Positions 14,321-52,182 of a stretch of DNA of 52,738 nucleotides are shown piece after piece (position 1 is the stretch's first letter; every line of letters begins with the position of its first letter). The notes beneath the pieces were generated by a model. It ran no database searches. It saw nothing but the letters and a program-made list of their open reading frames with translations, and was not told where the DNA came from. The translations under genes were made by a program, and so were the position numbers. Location of the stretch: NCBI GenBank assembly GCA_049322955.1, contig JBMOPU010000033.1, positions 194,784 to 247,521 on the forward strand, given 5' to 3'. Origin of the DNA: Patescibacteria group bacterium. GTDB taxonomy: Bacteria; Patescibacteriota; Microgenomatia; UBA10105; UBA927.

Positions 14321-14391
14321 TGCGGGATCGTATAACGGTAGTACGCATCCCTCTGGAGGATGTTATCTTGGTTCGAATCCAAGTCCCGCAG
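14321..14391 (+). tRNA. tRNA-Gln (anticodon CTG)
   Basis: Manual cloverleaf: acceptor TGCGGGA/TCCCGCA (U1-A72 as in bacterial tRNA-Gln); D stem GTAT/GTAC; anticodon stem CATCC/GGATG with loop CT-CTG-GA; T arm CTTGG-TTCGAAT-CCAAG; discriminator G. No encoded CCA. Confidence 0.9.
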
Positions 14392-14393
14392 CA
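14377..14393 (+). repeat. direct repeat copy 1 (tRNA-Gln T-loop/acceptor 3' end, ATCCAAGTCCCGCAGCA)
   Basis: Identical 17-mer at 14557-14573. 13-nt core repeated at 15320-15332. Confidence 0.9.
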
Positions 14394-14431
14394 TATACAA
14401 AAATTGCCCTGAAAAGGCATTTTTTGTATAT
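14393..14431. terminator. A-tract/T-tract palindrome (bidirectional terminator-like) directly after tRNA-Gln
   Basis: ATATACAAAAATTGCC-ctgaaaa-GGCATTTTTTGTATAT. 16-bp arms with one mismatch. Confidence 0.55.
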
Positions 14432-14556
14432 ACAGAGATTTAGGATGAGAACCAACTGCCAACAGGCGTATGGTTCGGGAGTATGAAGCATTATTGAAAC
14501 AACGATTTCAATAATAGCGAAATACTCATGAAACCCCGCTTTGCGGGGTGAACATC

Positions 14557-14573
14557 ATCCAAGTCCCGCAGCA
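14557..14573 (+). repeat. direct repeat copy 2 (exact 17-nt copy of tRNA-Gln 3' end)
   Basis: ATCCAAGTCCCGCAGCA is identical to 14377-14393. Confidence 0.9.
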
Positions 14574-14596: not shown

Positions 14597-15112
14597 ATGA
14601 ATAAAACGCACATCCATATTATTAAAACTGGCGGAACAATAGAATTTAAGGATCCAGGATACGAAAACGTTAATACACAGATGATGAAACTTGATACCTC
14701 TATAGATACGTACCTCAAAAATATGGTGAAGCCACACTTTGCCTACACCATTGAATCGGTTTGTGAAAAAGATAGTCGAGATGTTACTGACGAAGACCGC
14801 AATAAACTTATCAATGCAATCGAGCATACTTCTCACTCAAATATTGTTATTACCCACGGTACTTATACCATGGGACAAACCGCCAAATACTTAAATAAAC
14901 ATTTTATTGGCAAAGACTTAAAGAAAAAAATTATCCTGACAGGATCTATGATCCCTGTTGTTGGATTCTCTATGTCAGATGCAGCATTTAATCTTGGCTA
15001 CTGCATGGCATCATTCGATCATTTAAAACCAGGAGTCTATATAAGTATGAATGGTGGAATATTCAAGCCTAATGAGGTAGAAAAAAACTCAGAGCTACTC
15101 AGATTTGAATAA
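14597..15112 (+). CDS. asparaginase N-terminal-domain-only protein
   Basis: 171 aa. IIKTGGTIEF (catalytic Thr motif), VITHGTYTM (HGTDT-like) and ILTGSMIP. Visibly more AT-rich than its neighbours. TATACT ends 8 nt upstream of the ATG. Confidence 0.7.
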   Translation: MNKTHIHIIKTGGTIEFKDPGYENVNTQMMKLDTSIDTYLKNMVKPHFAYTIESVCEKDSRDVTDEDRNKLINAIEHTSHSNIVITHGTYTMGQTAKYLNKHFIGKDLKKKIILTGSMIPVVGFSMSDAAFNLGYCMASFDHLKPGVYISMNGGIFKPNEVEKNSELLRFE

Positions 15113-30063: not shown

Positions 30064-30441
30064 TTATTTGGCGCCGAAAAATTGCAGAATGTTTCCCTCG
30101 GGATCGGCAATCGTCATACACCATACCGTTCCCGTCGGAGAAAGGAACGGCTTGGCTATCCAGGTAACCGGTTTATCCTTGATTTCCTCATAGGAAGCGG
30201 AAATACTCTCCACGGGAAACCCGATCATTATCCGGTACGGATCCTTATTGCTTCCTTGTACTTTGTCGTGTTTCCCGACGGCAAAAAAGGTGTCTCCGAA
30301 ATCAAAATCAATGCAGGAATCATCCGGTAGTGTGGTTTTCCCCCGGACTGAAAATCCTAAAACATCCCGATACCATTCGGCGAGTTTTTCGTGATCTTGG
30401 GACCATATGATTGCGGAAAGGGTTTTGGCTCGAAGTTTCAT
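30064..30441 (-). CDS. VOC (glyoxalase/bleomycin-resistance) family protein
   Basis: 125 aa. WYRDVLGF and DPEGNILQF are typical paired beta-alpha-beta-beta-beta elements. Confidence 0.7.
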   Translation of the reverse strand: MKLRAKTLSAIIWSQDHEKLAEWYRDVLGFSVRGKTTLPDDSCIDFDFGDTFFAVGKHDKVQGSNKDPYRIMIGFPVESISASYEEIKDKPVTWIAKPFLSPTGTVWCMTIADPEGNILQFFGAK

Positions 30442-30500: not shown

Positions 30501-30983
30501 ATGAGAACGGCAATTCCTTATAAAAAACCCGCACGCATTCCTTTTACCCGTGAAGGATATCAGGAGATTCTCAAACAACAGAAGGAGTTTCTTCATGACA
30601 GACCAGCCGCGGTCGAAAATCTGAAGAAAGCCAGGGAAATGGGTGACCTTTCGGAAAACGGTTATTACAAAGCCGCCCGACAACGCCTTTCTTTTATCGA
30701 CGCACAGCTTCGCAGACTGGATCGCTTGGTCAGGTTCGGGAGCGTCATTGATAAACCCGTGCTTACCGGGGTTATCGGATTCGGATCTACCGTTACGTTA
30801 TCGGGTGCCGCGATGCGGCGTACGTTCACGATCGTCGGAGGATATGAGTCCAATCCCGCGGAGAACTCCATATCCCATATTTCCCCTCTGGGTAAAGCCC
30901 TTATGGGACACAAGGCAGGTGATAGGATTGCGCTTGATGCCCCGAAAGGGAGGGTAGAATATACGATCGAGTCGGTGACCTGA
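30501..30983 (+). CDS. GreA/GreB family elongation factor (divergent paralog)
   Basis: GDLSENGYYKAARQ coiled-coil tip motif and a C-terminal globular domain (ISHISPLGKALMGHKAGD). Confidence 0.8.
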   Translation: MRTAIPYKKPARIPFTREGYQEILKQQKEFLHDRPAAVENLKKAREMGDLSENGYYKAARQRLSFIDAQLRRLDRLVRFGSVIDKPVLTGVIGFGSTVTLSGAAMRRTFTIVGGYESNPAENSISHISPLGKALMGHKAGDRIALDAPKGRVEYTIESVT

Positions 30984-44321: not shown

Positions 44322-44792
44322 ATGCACATTACCATTCGTCGCGCAAAACTTTCCGATCTTGATGCAATCTGTACCCTCAGCCAGTCACTCTTTGAACACG
44401 AGCGGCAATTTACCGATGAGTATGACATGGGATGGTCGCACGGGGTGGCGGGGAGAAAGTTTTTCACCAAAATGCTTCGGAGTAGGAAAGCCTTTGTCTT
44501 GCTCGCTTTGGCTGAAGAAAAAGTCGTGGGCTATATCTTGGTAAAATTCCTCACCTTTTCCTGGCGGGCATATAACCCGATTGCCGAGCTTACGAATTTG
44601 AGCGTTGACCCCATGTTTCGCGGGCAGGGGATAGGCACTAAACTGGTGGAAAAGGCCGTTGCGATTGCCAGAAAGCGGGGGGCCAAACGGATGAGTGTGG
44701 AAGGATTGCATGACAATGTGCGAGCACTCAAGTTTTATAAAACCCAGGGGTTCCGCTCTTTTAGTGATACCCTGCTTCTTACCCTGACATAA
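44322..44792 (+). CDS. GNAT family N-acetyltransferase
   Basis: VDPMFRGQGIGTKLVEKA (motif A) and YKTQGF. Confidence 0.85.
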   Translation: MHITIRRAKLSDLDAICTLSQSLFEHERQFTDEYDMGWSHGVAGRKFFTKMLRSRKAFVLLALAEEKVVGYILVKFLTFSWRAYNPIAELTNLSVDPMFRGQGIGTKLVEKAVAIARKRGAKRMSVEGLHDNVRALKFYKTQGFRSFSDTLLLTLT

Positions 44793-44837
44793 CCCCTCTC
44801 GGTTTGGCACATCGGAGTGTGATAAAATGTGATATAC

Positions 44838-44930
44838 GCGCCCCGTTCGCAATCCAGGAGTGAACGAGCAGAGTCATCGAAGCGAGTACTACTCCTGGTG
44901 AGTGCCACGTACCCGTGGTCAGTCCGGCGC
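44838..44930 (+). repeat. tRNA-Glu-associated structured module, copy G1 (diverged)
   Basis: GCGCC...GGCGC closing helix. Shares GTTCGCAATCCAG and CTGGTGAGTGC blocks with G2. Helices CCAGGAGT/ACTCCTGG and GCCACG-tacc-CGTGGT. Confidence 0.65.
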
Positions 44931-44948
44931 AATTAACAACTAAATATC

Positions 44949-45022
44949 GCCCCGTTCGTCTAGCGGCCTAGGACGGTTCCTTCTCAAGGAACAAATCGCC
45001 GGTTCGAATCCGGCACGGGGTA
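44949..45022 (+). tRNA. tRNA-Glu (anticodon CTC)
   Basis: Manual cloverleaf: acceptor GCCCCGT/ACGGGGT (G1-U72 wobble); D arm GTCT-AGCGGCCTA-GGAC; anticodon stem GTTCC/GGAAC with loop TT-CTC-AA; T arm GCCGG-TTCGAAT-CCGGC; discriminator A. Confidence 0.85.
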
Positions 45023-45024
45023 CA

Positions 45025-45067
45025 TGCATAAAAAAAAGTCCCGCTTTGGCGGGATTTTTTTTATGCA
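45025..45067. terminator. long A-tract/T-tract palindrome (bidirectional terminator) directly after tRNA-Glu
   Basis: TGCATAAAAAAAAGTCCCGC-tttg-GCGGGATTTTTTTTATGCA. Confidence 0.75.
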
Positions 45068-45096
45068 CATATGTCCTGTGCTGAATTATCGAATCA

Positions 45097-45192
45097 GTTC
45101 CCGGTTCGCAATCCAGCAGTAGATAATTCGATTCGTAGAGAATTATTGTACTGCTGGTGAGTGCAGTGTGGTCACTGCAATCCGGCACGGGA
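45097..45192 (+). repeat. tRNA-Glu-associated structured module, copy G2, ending in a 13-nt copy of the tRNA-Glu 3' end
   Basis: CCGGTTCGCAATCC, then CCAGCAGTA/TACTGCTGG enclosing ATAATTC/GAATTAT, then GCAGTG-tggt-CACTGC, then AATCCGGCACGGG (identical to 45007-45019). Confidence 0.7.
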
Positions 45193-45235
45193 TGCATGTT
45201 AAAAATCCCGCACAAACGCGATAGAATATCATTGT

Positions 45236-45718
45236 ATGAATTCATATGGTCACGAATTTGAACATATGGGAACTCGTCGGGAACAACTATTGTCCCGATT
45301 ATCACATTCACTGAATAAATACGGTGTCGCCCAAAATTTGGAAGCGAAAGAACTTTGTTTCGATAACTATCGGCGCTCACTTCAATTCTTACGTAAAAAA
45401 CTCACCTCGTCCGGATTACGTATAAGAGAGTGGAATTTGTTTGGTAGCATGGCGCCTGTTCTCAGGCTTCCGTTCTTACAATCTATATTGTTACCGGTAT
45501 CGAAAGCCCGCTTGGGAATTTACCCGCTCGAATATACACTCGAGGATGCACTCGCAACCGTCACCTCCGGTCATAACGCAAGAAATTTACCTTCTGATAT
45601 TGATCTCATTTTAGATGCAGACAATGGCAATATTTCACCAAGAGATCAATCGTATATCAAATATTTCGCTCGCAAAAGTACGTTTGATGAATACGGAGTG
45701 TTTGTACAGTTTAAGTAG
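45236..45718 (+). CDS. hypothetical protein (weak, split nucleotidyltransferase-like motifs)
   Basis: 160-aa ORF, AT-rich by eye. FGS ... SDIDLILD resembles the minimal NTase G[GS]...DxD pattern, but with unusually long spacing. Confidence 0.45.
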   Translation: MNSYGHEFEHMGTRREQLLSRLSHSLNKYGVAQNLEAKELCFDNYRRSLQFLRKKLTSSGLRIREWNLFGSMAPVLRLPFLQSILLPVSKARLGIYPLEYTLEDALATVTSGHNARNLPSDIDLILDADNGNISPRDQSYIKYFARKSTFDEYGVFVQFK

Positions 45719-49507: not shown

Positions 49508-49969
49508 ATGAACAACAACCATATTGTCGTTACCAAAGAAGGATTAGACACGCTCAAAGCGGAATATGACGAACTGATAAATGTCAAGCGCCCCGCGGCT
49601 GTCACCCGGCTTGCCAATGCCCGTGAACAGGGTGATTTGTCTGAAAATAGCGAATATACCGATGCCAAACAAAATTTGGCATTCATTGACGGCAGAATCG
49701 CCGAACTCGAAATCGTGCTTCACGACGTACAGGTCGTCACCACCCACACCAAAGGTCACGTGGACGTGGGATGCAAAGTCACGCTTCATATAAACGGCAA
49801 AAAAGAAGTATTCACCGTCGTCGGAGAATGGGAGGCGGATCCGTCAAGCAAGAAGATCTCCCACGAATCGCCGCTTGGCAAGGCACTCCTTGGCAAGAAG
49901 GTAGGCGAGCAGGTTGAAGTGGAAGCGCCGGCGGGCAAGATCCACTACAAGGTTTTACATATAGAGTAA
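49508..49969 (+). CDS. greA: transcription elongation factor GreA
   Basis: 153 aa. GDLSENSEYTDAKQ tip, ISHESPLGKALLGKKVGE. Confidence 0.92.
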   Translation: MNNNHIVVTKEGLDTLKAEYDELINVKRPAAVTRLANAREQGDLSENSEYTDAKQNLAFIDGRIAELEIVLHDVQVVTTHTKGHVDVGCKVTLHINGKKEVFTVVGEWEADPSSKKISHESPLGKALLGKKVGEQVEVEAPAGKIHYKVLHIE

Positions 49970-50118: not shown

Positions 50119-52182
50119 ATGGCAACAATTGACACGCTGAAAAAAATACGACTTGAGAAGCTGGAAGCCCTGAAAAACCAAGGGATAAATCCTTATCCTG
50201 CAACAGCCCGACGGGATCAACGAATCTTAGATGCCCGTCAGTCACTGAAAAAAGAAGTTGCGGTAGCGGGGAGAATCCGAGGACTCAGAGGGCATGGCAA
50301 AATCATGTTTGCCGATTTTGCCGATGAGAGCGCGAAAATACAGCTTGTTTTTAAAAGTGATTTGGTACATGAGCACGCCTTTACCTTGTTGCCGAACCTT
50401 GATATCGGTGACTTTCTTTCGGTCCAAGGAACGGTTGATACCACCCAGGCGGGAGAAATTTCGATCTTTGTTGCCGATTTTCAGATAATCTCCAAATCAT
50501 TGCGCCCGCTTCCCGATGAATGGTACGGACTTAAGGATGTCGAAGAACGGTATCGGCGGCGTCATTTGGATCTGCTTCTTAACCCCGATGTAAAAGCAAC
50601 GCTCGATAAACGATGGAAGATTGAACAGGCAATCCGCACGTTTCTTTGGAGTGAGGGCTATACGGAAGTTGAAACGCCGATTCTCCAGCCGTTATACGGG
50701 GGAACCAACGCAAAGCCCTTTACCACGCACCTTAACGCGCTTGATGTCGATTTTTATTTACGGATTGCGCCTGAGCTTTATCTCAAACGGCTTATTGTCG
50801 GCGGCTACGAGCGCATATTCGAAATCGCGAGAAATTTCCGCAATGAAGGAATGGATGCCACGCATCAGCCGGAATTTACCATGATGGAATTTTATGAAGC
50901 GTACGCGGATTATCATCGCATCATGGATCTTACCGAAGACCTCATCAAACATGCCGCACAAGCGGCGAATCAGAGCTACATGATCACGATCGACGGAAAA
51001 TCCATAGATATTTCCGGCAAATGGCGACGCATTACCGTGGATGAAGCACTCAAAGAATACGCGGGCATCGAATGGCAAAAAATTTCGGAAGAAGAAATCA
51101 AATCCCGACTCGAAAATGCCGGTGTTCAGGTTACCGGTGAGTGGAGCAGAGACAAAGCGCTTTTTGCGTTATACGACCATTTCGTGACACCGAAACTTAT
51201 CGAACCCACGTGGGTAATTGATTATCCGCGTGCCGTAAGCCCGCTTTCCAAAGAACACCGCACGAAAGAAGGCCGTGTAGAGCGGTTTGAAGGATATGTG
51301 GGGGGAAAAGAAATCTGTGACGGATGGAGTGAGATTAACAGCGGATTAGAGCAACGATCAAGGTTTGAACAAGAACAGCGCAACATGAAAGCGGGGGATG
51401 CGGAAGCACAGCCGCTCGATGAAGATTTTATCCAATCACTCGAATACGGAATGCCGCCTTTGGGGGGCATCGGTATCGGGATTGACCGATTAGTGATGCT
51501 TATTACCAATACGTGGATGATTCGGGAAGTGATTCCGTTCCCGCTCATGCGCCCCGAATCGATCTCCGGCACGGTTGCCGCGGTTTCCCTCAAGAAAGGT
51601 GAGGATAAGGATACAAGTGTATCGAAAAAAGTCGCGATGGATCTATTGCACGAGCATACGAAGAATGAAAATTTGCGGCGCCATATGTATGCCGTGGGAT
51701 ACGCCATGCGCGCACTCGCGGAAAAACTCGGCGGGGACTCAGATACCTGGGAAGTCATGGGATTGCTCCATGATGCCGACTGGGAAAAAACAAAAGATGC
51801 ACCGCATGAACATACCAAATTGACCCTTTCATGGCTTGCCGAAAAAGGGGTGACGGAAGGACGGTTGGTGCATGCCCTCATGTCCCACAACAGAAAGCAC
51901 ACGGATCTTGCCGAACTTGAGGGACTCATGGAATGGGCGCTGGAAACCGTGGATGAACTTACCGGATTTATCGTGGCCGTTACCCTTATGCGACCGGAAA
52001 AGAAACTCGAAAGCGTTGATGTCGCGGCAGTGATGAAAAAGTGGAAAACAAAGGCTTTTGCCGCGGCGGTGGATAGAGATCAAATCGCCCAGTGTGAGGA
52101 AAAATTGGGGATTCCGCTTTCGGAATTTATCACCATAACGCTTACCGCCATGCAAGCGCATCACGAAGAATTGGGGCTATAA
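50119..52182 (+). CDS. lysS: lysine--tRNA ligase (class II) fused to a C-terminal HD-domain hydrolase
   Basis: LysRS core to about residue 487 (FRNEGMD, EFTMMEFY, GIGIGIDRLVML, FPLMRPE). Then a linker and an approximately 180-aa HD domain (HMYAVGYAMRALAEKLG...GLLHDADWEK...HALMSHN). Confidence 0.93.
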   Translation: MATIDTLKKIRLEKLEALKNQGINPYPATARRDQRILDARQSLKKEVAVAGRIRGLRGHGKIMFADFADESAKIQLVFKSDLVHEHAFTLLPNLDIGDFLSVQGTVDTTQAGEISIFVADFQIISKSLRPLPDEWYGLKDVEERYRRRHLDLLLNPDVKATLDKRWKIEQAIRTFLWSEGYTEVETPILQPLYGGTNAKPFTTHLNALDVDFYLRIAPELYLKRLIVGGYERIFEIARNFRNEGMDATHQPEFTMMEFYEAYADYHRIMDLTEDLIKHAAQAANQSYMITIDGKSIDISGKWRRITVDEALKEYAGIEWQKISEEEIKSRLENAGVQVTGEWSRDKALFALYDHFVTPKLIEPTWVIDYPRAVSPLSKEHRTKEGRVERFEGYVGGKEICDGWSEINSGLEQRSRFEQEQRNMKAGDAEAQPLDEDFIQSLEYGMPPLGGIGIGIDRLVMLITNTWMIREVIPFPLMRPESISGTVAAVSLKKGEDKDTSVSKKVAMDLLHEHTKNENLRRHMYAVGYAMRALAEKLGGDSDTWEVMGLLHDADWEKTKDAPHEHTKLTLSWLAEKGVTEGRLVHALMSHNRKHTDLAELEGLMEWALETVDELTGFIVAVTLMRPEKKLESVDVAAVMKKWKTKAFAAAVDRDQIAQCEEKLGIPLSEFITITLTAMQAHHEELGL

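Follow-up and report, generated by a model that had tools for sequence, protein, structure and literature searches.

What are the two similar structured sequences that enclose the tRNA-Glu gene of this Patescibacteria group bacterium, and how did they come to lie there? The question was raised by an earlier note on the stretch of contig JBMOPU010000033.1 analyzed here (52.7 kb, referred to as the window), which had described two copies of one module, G1 upstream and G2 downstream of the tRNA. We propose, at a probability of about 0.5, that both are copies of a mobile module, site-specific and non-autonomous, which rides cassette arrays at tRNA genes. On this reading, tRNA genes would be fast-changing landing pads for small non-coding mobile DNA.

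Two copies of one module flank tRNA-Glu

Two tRNA genes were found in the window with ARAGORN, Gln(CUG) at 14321-14392 and Glu(CUC) at 44949-45023. The sequence blocks reported to be shared by G1 and G2, GTTCGCAATCCAG and CTGGTGAGTGC, were located with 0 mismatches at 44845/45104 and 44895/45154, and nowhere else in the window. The quoted co-varying helices are present in both copies and appear in the minimum-free-energy structure into which G1 and G2 fold. The RNA z-scores on the + strand are -2.8 for G1 and -4.2 for G2; folding energies do not discriminate between DNA and RNA or between the two strands.

Further copies were gathered by pattern scans of a one-genome-per-species set and a metagenome set. 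Covariation was measured on an alignment of 42 sequences (A2), and the covariance model of the Glu-type family is referred to as R1. Genomes other than that of the window are represented by pieces of 2-15 kb, cited by L numbers. Copies placed in tRNA-derived sequence as G1 is are called D-type, and those placed as G2 is are called T-type. The features of the tRNA-Glu locus are the following.

44820-44828, + strand: TGATAAAAT, an extended -10-like box 5' of G1 (read from the sequence)
44838-44849, + strand: displaced copy of the tRNA-Glu 5' end (nucleotides (nt) 1-10, terminating in GTTCG), left flank of G1 (11-nt exact repeat)
44850-44919, + strand: module G1, 70 nt (R1 84.4 bits, E 3.8e-21; fold; covariation)
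44920-44930, + strand: 5' portion CAGTCCGGCGC of a second module, older and truncated, that follows G1 in tandem (matches L011)
44931-44948, + strand: conserved pre-tRNA leader AATTAACAACTAAATATC (comparison with other loci)
44949-45023, + strand: intact tRNA-Glu(CUC) (ARAGORN; Rfam tRNA 57.6 bits)
45024-45067, no strand assigned: palindromic bidirectional intrinsic terminator, borne by the downstream cassette (inverted repeats I2 and I3; terminator scan)
45068-45108, + strand: spacer, degenerate T-arm relic CGAATCAG (45090-45097) and copy of the T-arm 5' half CCCGGTTCG (45100-45108) (32 T-type units compared)
45109-45178, + strand: module G2, 70 nt, with P2 at 45113-45157, TGAGT at 45158-45162 and P3 at 45163-45178 (R1; fold)
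45179-45191, + strand: displaced copy of tRNA-Glu nt 58-70 (exact 13-nt direct repeat AATCCGGCACGGG of 45007-45019)
45192-45222, + strand: decayed copy of the tRNA terminator (repeat D3; inverted repeat I1 similarity)

G1 consists of a CAAT junction, the hairpin P2 at 44854-44898 with a tandem G.A, TGAGT at 44899-44903 and the hairpin P3 at 44904-44919. G2 scores 81.7 bits with R1 (E 2.1e-20) and has Watson-Crick pairs in place of the tandem G.A. Full R1 matches in the window are G1 and G2 alone.

The flanks of both modules are pieces of tRNA. On the left of G1, the 11-nt exact repeat CGCCCCGTTCG at 44839-44849 equals 44948-44958 at the tRNA-Glu 5' end, and the same flank was found in all D-type copies. 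The short segment 3' of G1 (44920-44930) matches the first 11 nt of a full CAGTCCAGCGC... module in L011, and ACAAGTAAATAT-type leaders lie directly 5' of tRNA-Glu in L021, L026, L033, L057 and L030. The exact 13-nt copy of the tRNA 3' end that follows G2 was reproduced; it is flank and lies outside the module proper. The two 13-nt repeats start 172 bp apart with no open reading frame (ORF) inside, which agrees with the non-coding insert of about 170 bp claimed in the earlier note, and the weaker similarity that was said to continue into the terminator amounts to 81% over 27 nt after a 4-nt deletion. The intact tRNA-Glu itself has both GTTCG sites (nt 6-10 and nt 53-57) without a module.

In five D-type loci (L005, L021, L026, L031 and L057), GCCCCG is preceded at a distance of 9-13 nt by boxes of the form TGnTAAAAT or TGnTATAAT, and from its sequence the TGATAAAAT box is the likely promoter of a putative transcript with G1 and tRNA-Glu. 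A simple sigma-70 scan did not call this box. For G2, the promoter and terminator scan gave a strong terminator upstream and no promoter.

The modules belong to a conserved two-hairpin family

The scan of one genome per species gave 19 matches, 10 of which were true members and the others chance matches with missing helices, and the metagenome scan gave 46, mostly true. After de-duplication, the family comprises 44 copies on about 35 contigs. Each module runs from C(A/C)(A/G)T through P2, TGAGT and P3 to one final base. P2 starts from an invariant CCAG/CUGG base and continues with a variable stem, a small internal loop, an upper stem that contains the tandem G.A, and a variable tip; P3 has 5-7 bp with a loop that is mostly UAAY or UACY. 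In A2, 96.8% of the cells are paired and double compensatory changes were observed at 14 of the 18 pairs; none of 500 shuffles was as good, and sliding the partners left 27-58% paired. RNAalifold independently recovered P2 and P3. The proposal that the two segments are copies of one structured module whose helices truly covary is therefore upheld across the 42 sequences. The TGAGT junction is kept in 41 of them and the tandem G.A in 36, and G.U combinations outnumber those of A.C (14 vs 7). Because of the conserved tandem G.A and the two-fold excess of G.U over A.C, the + strand is considered the folded strand. A weak partial R1 match at 30198-30234 on the - strand (15 bits, E 0.023), covering upper P2 with the tandem G.A inside a glyoxalase-family ORF, is probably due to chance.

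With Rfam 15, tRNA was the sole family passing the gathering threshold in the window. At E values up to 10 over 44780-45260, G1 and G2 were touched solely by weak, spurious matches below the threshold, most of them driven by the terminator and made to leader or small RNA models. Hammerhead, K-turn/box C-D, T-loop, tRNA-Sec, tmRNA and Y-RNA-like identities were dropped by eye, as invariant core positions misfit, and ARAGORN and Rfam were silent on them. No description of the two-hairpin element was found in the literature searched, where the closest analogue is in PMC3293823. With no Rfam family or paper found for it, we regard the module as a previously undescribed non-coding two-hairpin element of about 70 nt.

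The hosts are labeled Saccharibacteria, Gracilibacteria, Gottesmanbacteria, Patescibacteria and, doubtfully, 'Gammaproteobacteria' in the metagenome-assembled genomes (MAGs), and several module-bearing contigs derive from 0.1-µm groundwater filtrates. Six pieces (L004, L006, L008, L009, L011 and L014) are labeled 'uncultured Gammaproteobacteria bacterium' and have the same element as the Patescibacteria MAGs. For this reason, and since L011 has the gene order of the window, these labels look unreliable. As far as sampled, the family is apparently restricted to Patescibacteria, the ultra-small bacteria also called CPR. Scans of viral contigs gave chance matches alone, without P2 or P3.

The modules lie at two fixed positions in tRNA-derived sequence

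In all copies except tandem second copies, the left flank is [G/C]GTTCG (rarely GTTTG or GTACG), and the 3' boundary of the module is fixed at P3 plus one base. The right flank takes two forms. In T-type copies it is AATCC followed by the remainder of the tRNA 3' end (nt 58-76), the module lying between nt 57 and 58 as in G2, and in D-type copies it is (G)CTAGCGGCC, which corresponds to tRNA-Glu nt 11-20, the module lying between nt 10 and 11 as in G1. The module has the same 3' end in both contexts, always has the orientation of the tRNA, and is not itself surrounded by a direct repeat. The members of the family have a conserved structure and exact boundaries in two unrelated right flanks.

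All 44 copies lie in tRNA-derived sequence, and scattering over motif-bearing genomic sites was not observed. Among the 59 [G/C]GTTCG sites of the window, two have a Glu-type module, both tRNA-derived, a third precedes the Gln-type module described below, and the others are empty. An intact, module-free tRNA adjoins nearly all copies. In tandem arrays, the copy proximal to GTTCG is intact and the distal copies are decayed (L005, L006, L014 and L030).

The same layout was found at tRNAs for Gln, Cys, Arg and Asn, with T-type copies following tRNA-Glu, tRNA-Cys (L025), tRNA-Arg (L040) and tRNA-Asn (L055). Among the 32 T-type units compared, most of those outside the window have full nt 58-76 repeats. 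Most T-type left flanks form a hairpin, GAACC(T-stem complement)-loop-(T-stem)GGTTCG (H0), the upstream arm of which tracks the local tRNA T-stem with G.U wobbles on the + strand; the counterpart of H0 at G2, where CCCGGTTCG is the left flank, is degenerate. In L031, L061, L054, L025 and L028, the left flank is a genuine tRNA body, and an intact tRNA cassette with inverted repeats lies in the anticodon loop of the outer, module-bearing tRNA. Such nesting of a complete inner tRNA (Glu or Cys) in another tRNA is seen at L031:2300-2760 (- strand), L061:560-920 and L025:6800-7120, where the inner tRNA has 9-14-bp inverted repeats, a differing acceptor stem or T-stem, and the anticodon of the outer one.

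In many T-type units, GGATGAGAACC (generally GAT-N1-3-GAACC) occurs 5' of the T-stem copy, for example at L009:2232-2356 and L036:8010-8129, and also at 14443-14453 in the window. It resembles a degenerate T-loop plus the 3' half of a T-stem minus one T, and pairs with GGTTC. A small ORF at GGATGAGAACC... was rejected, as the reading frame varies between loci.

At L055:8531-9420, a cassette of about 0.8 kb between tRNA-Asn and its 3'-end repeat contains a RibD_C-domain gene, a terminator, GGATGAGAACC...GGTTCG and the module. Since the gene lies inside the cassette, units can carry protein-coding cargo. Foreign-looking genes adjoin units at L018:3471-4385, L001:4205-5131 and L031:1024-1902 (a Bro-N domain protein, an SDH-type ClpP-like protease and a rve-family transposase), and a putative frameshifted thermonuclease-like fragment was recognized by eye beside a unit at L051:2250-2650.

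Modules are gained, lost and replaced between close relatives

Across related genomes, units were found to be carried, absent or replaced. L011 and L030 have the flanking genes of the window. Between L011 and the window these genes are 83-89% identical, with 26-43% of the third codon positions changed, and G1 with its 5' flank is identical at 81 of 81 positions. L011 differs from the window on both sides of the tRNA: a further unit of 128 bp (GCCCCGTTCG-module-CTAGCGGCC-spacer) adjoins it on the 5' side, at exactly the point that is vacant in the window, and on the 3' side the terminator, hairpin and module are unrelated to those of the window. L030 is the nearer relative (90-94% identical); it has a vestige of G1 alone, and three other modules downstream. 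The terminator after tRNA-Glu is wholly different in both. L047 and L064 have both flanks identical and different modules, and L022 and L032 complete the mosaic of these two with breakpoints within conserved blocks. Tandem arrays with decaying distal copies thus occur in this family next to gain, loss and replacement of modules between close relatives.

Directly 3' of the G2 repeat, the window has an ORF of 160 amino acids (45236-45718) plus about 600 bp; no Pfam, NCBIfam or PHROGs match was found for the ORF. This ORF is absent from L011 and L030, whose repeat directly adjoins the shared downstream gene. The region may be the cargo of an older cassette.

The tRNA-Gln unit has the same architecture and a different sequence

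The earlier note had likened the tRNA-Glu locus to that of tRNA-Gln, and the tRNA, palindromic terminator, structured module and 17-nt repeat were found at tRNA-Gln as described. The likeness holds for the architecture but not for the sequence: the R1 search did not detect the Gln module, which has no recognizable sequence in common with the Glu type and belongs to a different sequence family. The unit has the following parts.

14393-14573, + strand: Gln unit (sequence and fold comparison; conserved in L100)
14393-14431, + strand: terminator
14443-14477, + strand: GGATGAGAACCAA...ATGGTTCG hairpin
14478-14556, + strand: Gln-type two-hairpin module of a different sequence family
14557-14573, + strand: 17-nt tRNA 3'-end repeat of 14377-14393

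The consensus of the Gln-type module is GGAGTATG..., ATGRA, P3 and GAACATC. Unlike the Glu-type units, it is kept with its tRNA in L100 (L100:2215-2400), where the uracil-DNA glycosylase is 82% identical to that of the window. P3 is fully replaced there by a compensated helix, and beyond the repeat the sequences of the window and L100 are unrelated. Directly 3' of the unit in the window, 14597-15112 encodes a protein of 171 amino acids that corresponds to an asparaginase N-terminal domain alone.

Site-specific mobility as the preferred reading

Since the module has precise, identical ends in two contexts that have only the left flank in common, a fixed orientation, and a pile-up of copies at the same GTTCG, we consider it a discrete site-specific insertion. 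Gain, loss and replacement among near relatives, and the identity of G1 across genomes diverged by about 15%, further suggest that the module moves or, at a minimum, undergoes horizontal exchange. In the proposed mechanism, the module would always insert in the same orientation, directly after a GTTCG of tRNA-derived sequence, either at nt 57/58 in the T-loop or at nt 10/11 of tRNA-Glu. Insertions would survive in redundant tRNA fragments alone, because hits at these positions of an essential single-copy tRNA would be lethal, and the fragments would stem from cassettes that accumulate at the tRNA gene. A cassette on the downstream side would bring its own tRNA nt 58-76 and terminator, pushing the previous 3' end and its module outward, and the tRNA gene would stay intact because of this replacement. 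Upstream units would be the mirror image, with a leader and nt 1-10. No transposase, integrase, reverse transcriptase or Y1 HUH transposase was found among the window ORFs scanned (at least 120 amino acids; 52.7 kb). As no candidate enzyme is encoded in the window, mobilization would occur in trans.

The module itself would then transpose, the substrate would be a strand-specific folded form, either single-stranded DNA or RNA, and the catalyst would resemble a HUH single-strand transposase, a Rep-type nickase or another site-specific recombinase. The closest resemblance would be to HUH-type transposition or to Rep-like nicking within the loop of a hairpin, because the insertion is defined by its left flank, free of duplication, strand-specific and located beside hairpins. 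More tentatively, Patescibacteria may harbor a so-far undescribed tRNA-directed mobile element system that follows a strategy of 'break the essential tRNA and bring the spare part'. The module of such a system would recognize the T-arm and the T-arm-like 5' site of tRNA-Glu as folded single-stranded nucleic acid, and would act by a HUH/Rep-like nick in the loop or by reverse insertion at the RNA level. It would co-mobilize replacement tRNA ends, and would coexist with whole replacement tRNA genes nested in the resident anticodon loop. That the mechanism is of a new kind is possible but on the doubtful side.

Several points weigh against site-specific mobility. No mobilizing enzyme was identified, and no protein was found to be common to the surroundings of the module across loci, except for the synteny between the window and L011. 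The bare 6-nt target cannot be the whole signal, because insertion was never caught at a non-tRNA site. The hairpin proposed for the nt 10/11 site has an energy of -1.5 kcal/mol, no better than shuffles, and the suggestion from this modeling that the site might mimic the T-arm hairpin is weak. The distances from junction to hairpin (4 nt and 1 nt) misfit IS608-type ends. The mosaic patterns of L047, L064, L022 and L032 could be a product of homologous recombination among serial units, not of transposition, and the conservation of the Gln unit in L100 and of G1 would be just as compatible with selection for a cellular role. The partial duplications of the tRNA 5' and 3' ends are not explained mechanistically.

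Alternative explanations

The main rival, which we judge somewhat improbable and which is compatible with mobility, is that the modules are functional structured RNAs kept by selection: a 5' leader domain of tRNA-Glu in the case of G1, and 3' trailers or stand-alone transcripts in the case of G2 and the Gln unit. They might serve, for example, as a protein-binding or processing element, or as a tRNA-fragment mimic or decoy. The strong covariation, the near-invariant TGAGT and the conserved tandem G.A would be expected of such RNAs. G1 should be co-transcribed with the tRNA, because it lies between the promoter-like box and the tRNA with no terminator between, and this predicted co-transcription also suits a functional RNA. 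So do the absence of any difference over 81 positions against about 15% divergence of the flanks, the retention of the Gln unit with compensated stems in L100, and the divergence of modules at different tRNAs of one contig, which are not recent copies (L025 vs L038; L040 vs L043). However, the closest relative L030 lacks G1, copy number and position vary between relatives, and tandem extras decay. G2 lies behind a strong terminator with no detected promoter, and has lost the G.A motif and the upstream hairpin. Moreover, 100% identity that includes loop bases suggests recent transfer over structural constraint.

A less probable explanation is that the units are remnants of islands or prophages that target tRNA genes with tyrosine integrases. 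The repeat would be attR, the hairpin region a conserved attP arm beside attR, and the mini-units deletion derivatives or satellites. Consistent with this, the direct repeats are tRNA 3' ends (13 nt for Glu, 17 nt for Gln), and element-borne sequence with a terminator restores the tRNA. Serial arrays were found in L008, L030 and L036, cargo in L055 (RibD_C), Bro-N and other foreign-looking genes beside units in L018 and L001, and nested tRNA cassettes with terminal inverted repeats in the anticodon loops of L031, L061 and L025. The integrase models do not predict, however, that the same module with the same exact ends occurs at nt 10/11 of 5' fragments, and the module interrupts the T-loop exactly at the expected crossover region. 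No integrase was found in the window ORFs scanned or beside units, and the 172-bp unit is free of ORFs. The stems covary like folded single strands, unlike duplex protein-binding arm sites, and the viral-contig scans described above also argue against this origin.

There is a small chance that the modules are bacterial tRNA introns of a new, spliceable class, located at positions 10/11 and 57/58, with functional outer tRNAs. The boundaries are exact tRNA positions, and the outer tRNA-Glu of L031 retains cloverleaf-compatible exons around two modules. Archaea offer a precedent, as introns transpose there at tRNA positions that are not canonical and mobile elements give rise to tRNA fragments (PMC3293823). 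Nevertheless, an intact module-free tRNA with the same anticodon adjoins nearly all loci, in the window no exons corresponding to nt 11-48 lie between G1 and G2, and L031 has the only near-complete outer gene. At nt 11, the 5' copies have a G or a deletion, so that a D-stem pair is lost. On inspection, no bulge-helix-bulge was seen at the junctions of modules or nested cassettes; the self-paired P3 lies right against the 3' junction, and the two junctions are not connected by a 4-bp helix. There is no group I/II signature and no Rfam match, the 5' flank ends in G rather than U, the module starts with C rather than GUGYG, and 70 nt is too small for known self-splicing introns. A spliced intron is thus unlikely.

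Finally, chance resemblance or simple local duplication has next to no probability: the window holds only two copies of the Glu-type family, but the pattern scans and covariation refute it, with 44 copies on about 35 contigs, and G1 and G2 differ by compensated changes and lie in different flank contexts. A lack of such modules at other tRNA loci and in related genomes, which the earlier note had named as part of what would refute it, is clearly not the case.

Comparison with known systems

IS200/IS605 elements and their palindrome-associated, non-autonomous derivatives are moved by Y1 HUH single-strand transposases. Like these, the module is found in one orientation immediately 3' of a short motif, without target duplication or terminal inverted repeats, and has a hairpin near each end and strand-specific folding. 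Because the target motif is retained on the left of the module, tandem insertion is possible, as in IS200/IS605. Unlike in these elements, the hairpins are 4 nt and 1 nt from the junctions with no visible arrangement of guide and cleavage sites, no TnpA or TnpB gene was found among the window ORFs scanned, and copies lie in tRNA-derived sequence alone although GTTCG is common.

Genomic islands and prophages that target tRNA genes accrete in tandem, and their tyrosine integrases cross over in the T-loop, the anticodon loop or the 3' end. As in these islands, 3' sequence borne by the element restores the tRNA, a direct repeat is made up by the 3' fragment that was displaced, the units farther from the tRNA in serial arrays are the older ones, and some units have cargo genes. 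In contrast to them, the units are as small as about 170 bp without genes and have a mirror-image 5' version, a structured module lies in the T-loop of the displaced copy, and no integrase was seen.

Integron attC sites and the attP hairpin of the CTX phage are recombination sites made of folded single strands. The modules resemble them in that stem structure is conserved over sequence, a structured site ends each cassette, and the target is regenerated, so that cassettes stack in arrays. They differ in having no GTTRRRY/RYYYAAC core sites (the junction follows GTTCG, and GTTCGCA misfits GTTRRRY), in showing no association with IntI or Xer and in targeting the tRNA T-loop.

Intron transposition in tRNA genes occurs in the Thermoproteales. 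Among archaeal disrupted tRNA genes, non-canonical introns transpose and tRNA fragments arise from mobile-element integration (Sugahara et al. 2012, PMC3293823). The archaeal genes resemble the loci described here in that related short inserts occur at several sites of the tRNA, the D- and T-arms among them, that an intact gene has a 5' tRNA fragment on its upstream side, and that close genomes are heterogeneous; the present loci differ in their bacterial hosts, the lack of a bulge-helix-bulge, and module-bearing copies that are mostly incomplete genes beside an intact one.

Other features of the window

The window is a bacterial chromosome segment with lon, mutS, mutL, suf genes, greA and lysS, and its uracil-DNA glycosylase has named homologues from Levybacteria, Saccharimonadales and 'Patescibacteria group'. 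Two GreA paralogues are encoded (30501-30983 and 49508-49969), and the lysyl-tRNA synthetase (50119-52182) has a C-terminal extension that matches the HDIG domain weakly (24.5 vs a cutoff of 27.6 bits).

Implications

The covariance model is ready for annotating Patescibacteria genomes, where these segments go unannotated and can confuse the prediction of tRNAs and islands. If site-specific mobility is correct, the modules would point to an enzyme recognizing the T-arm sequence GGTTCG/AATCC. They would also be a parallel, in bacteria, to the tRNA genes that are disrupted, fragmented or nested in archaea, so that the way in which tRNA gene disruption arose could be tested in a second domain. 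The tRNA genes of these reduced genomes would then be hot spots of a specialized non-coding mobile element with an unusually strict structure and choice of target.

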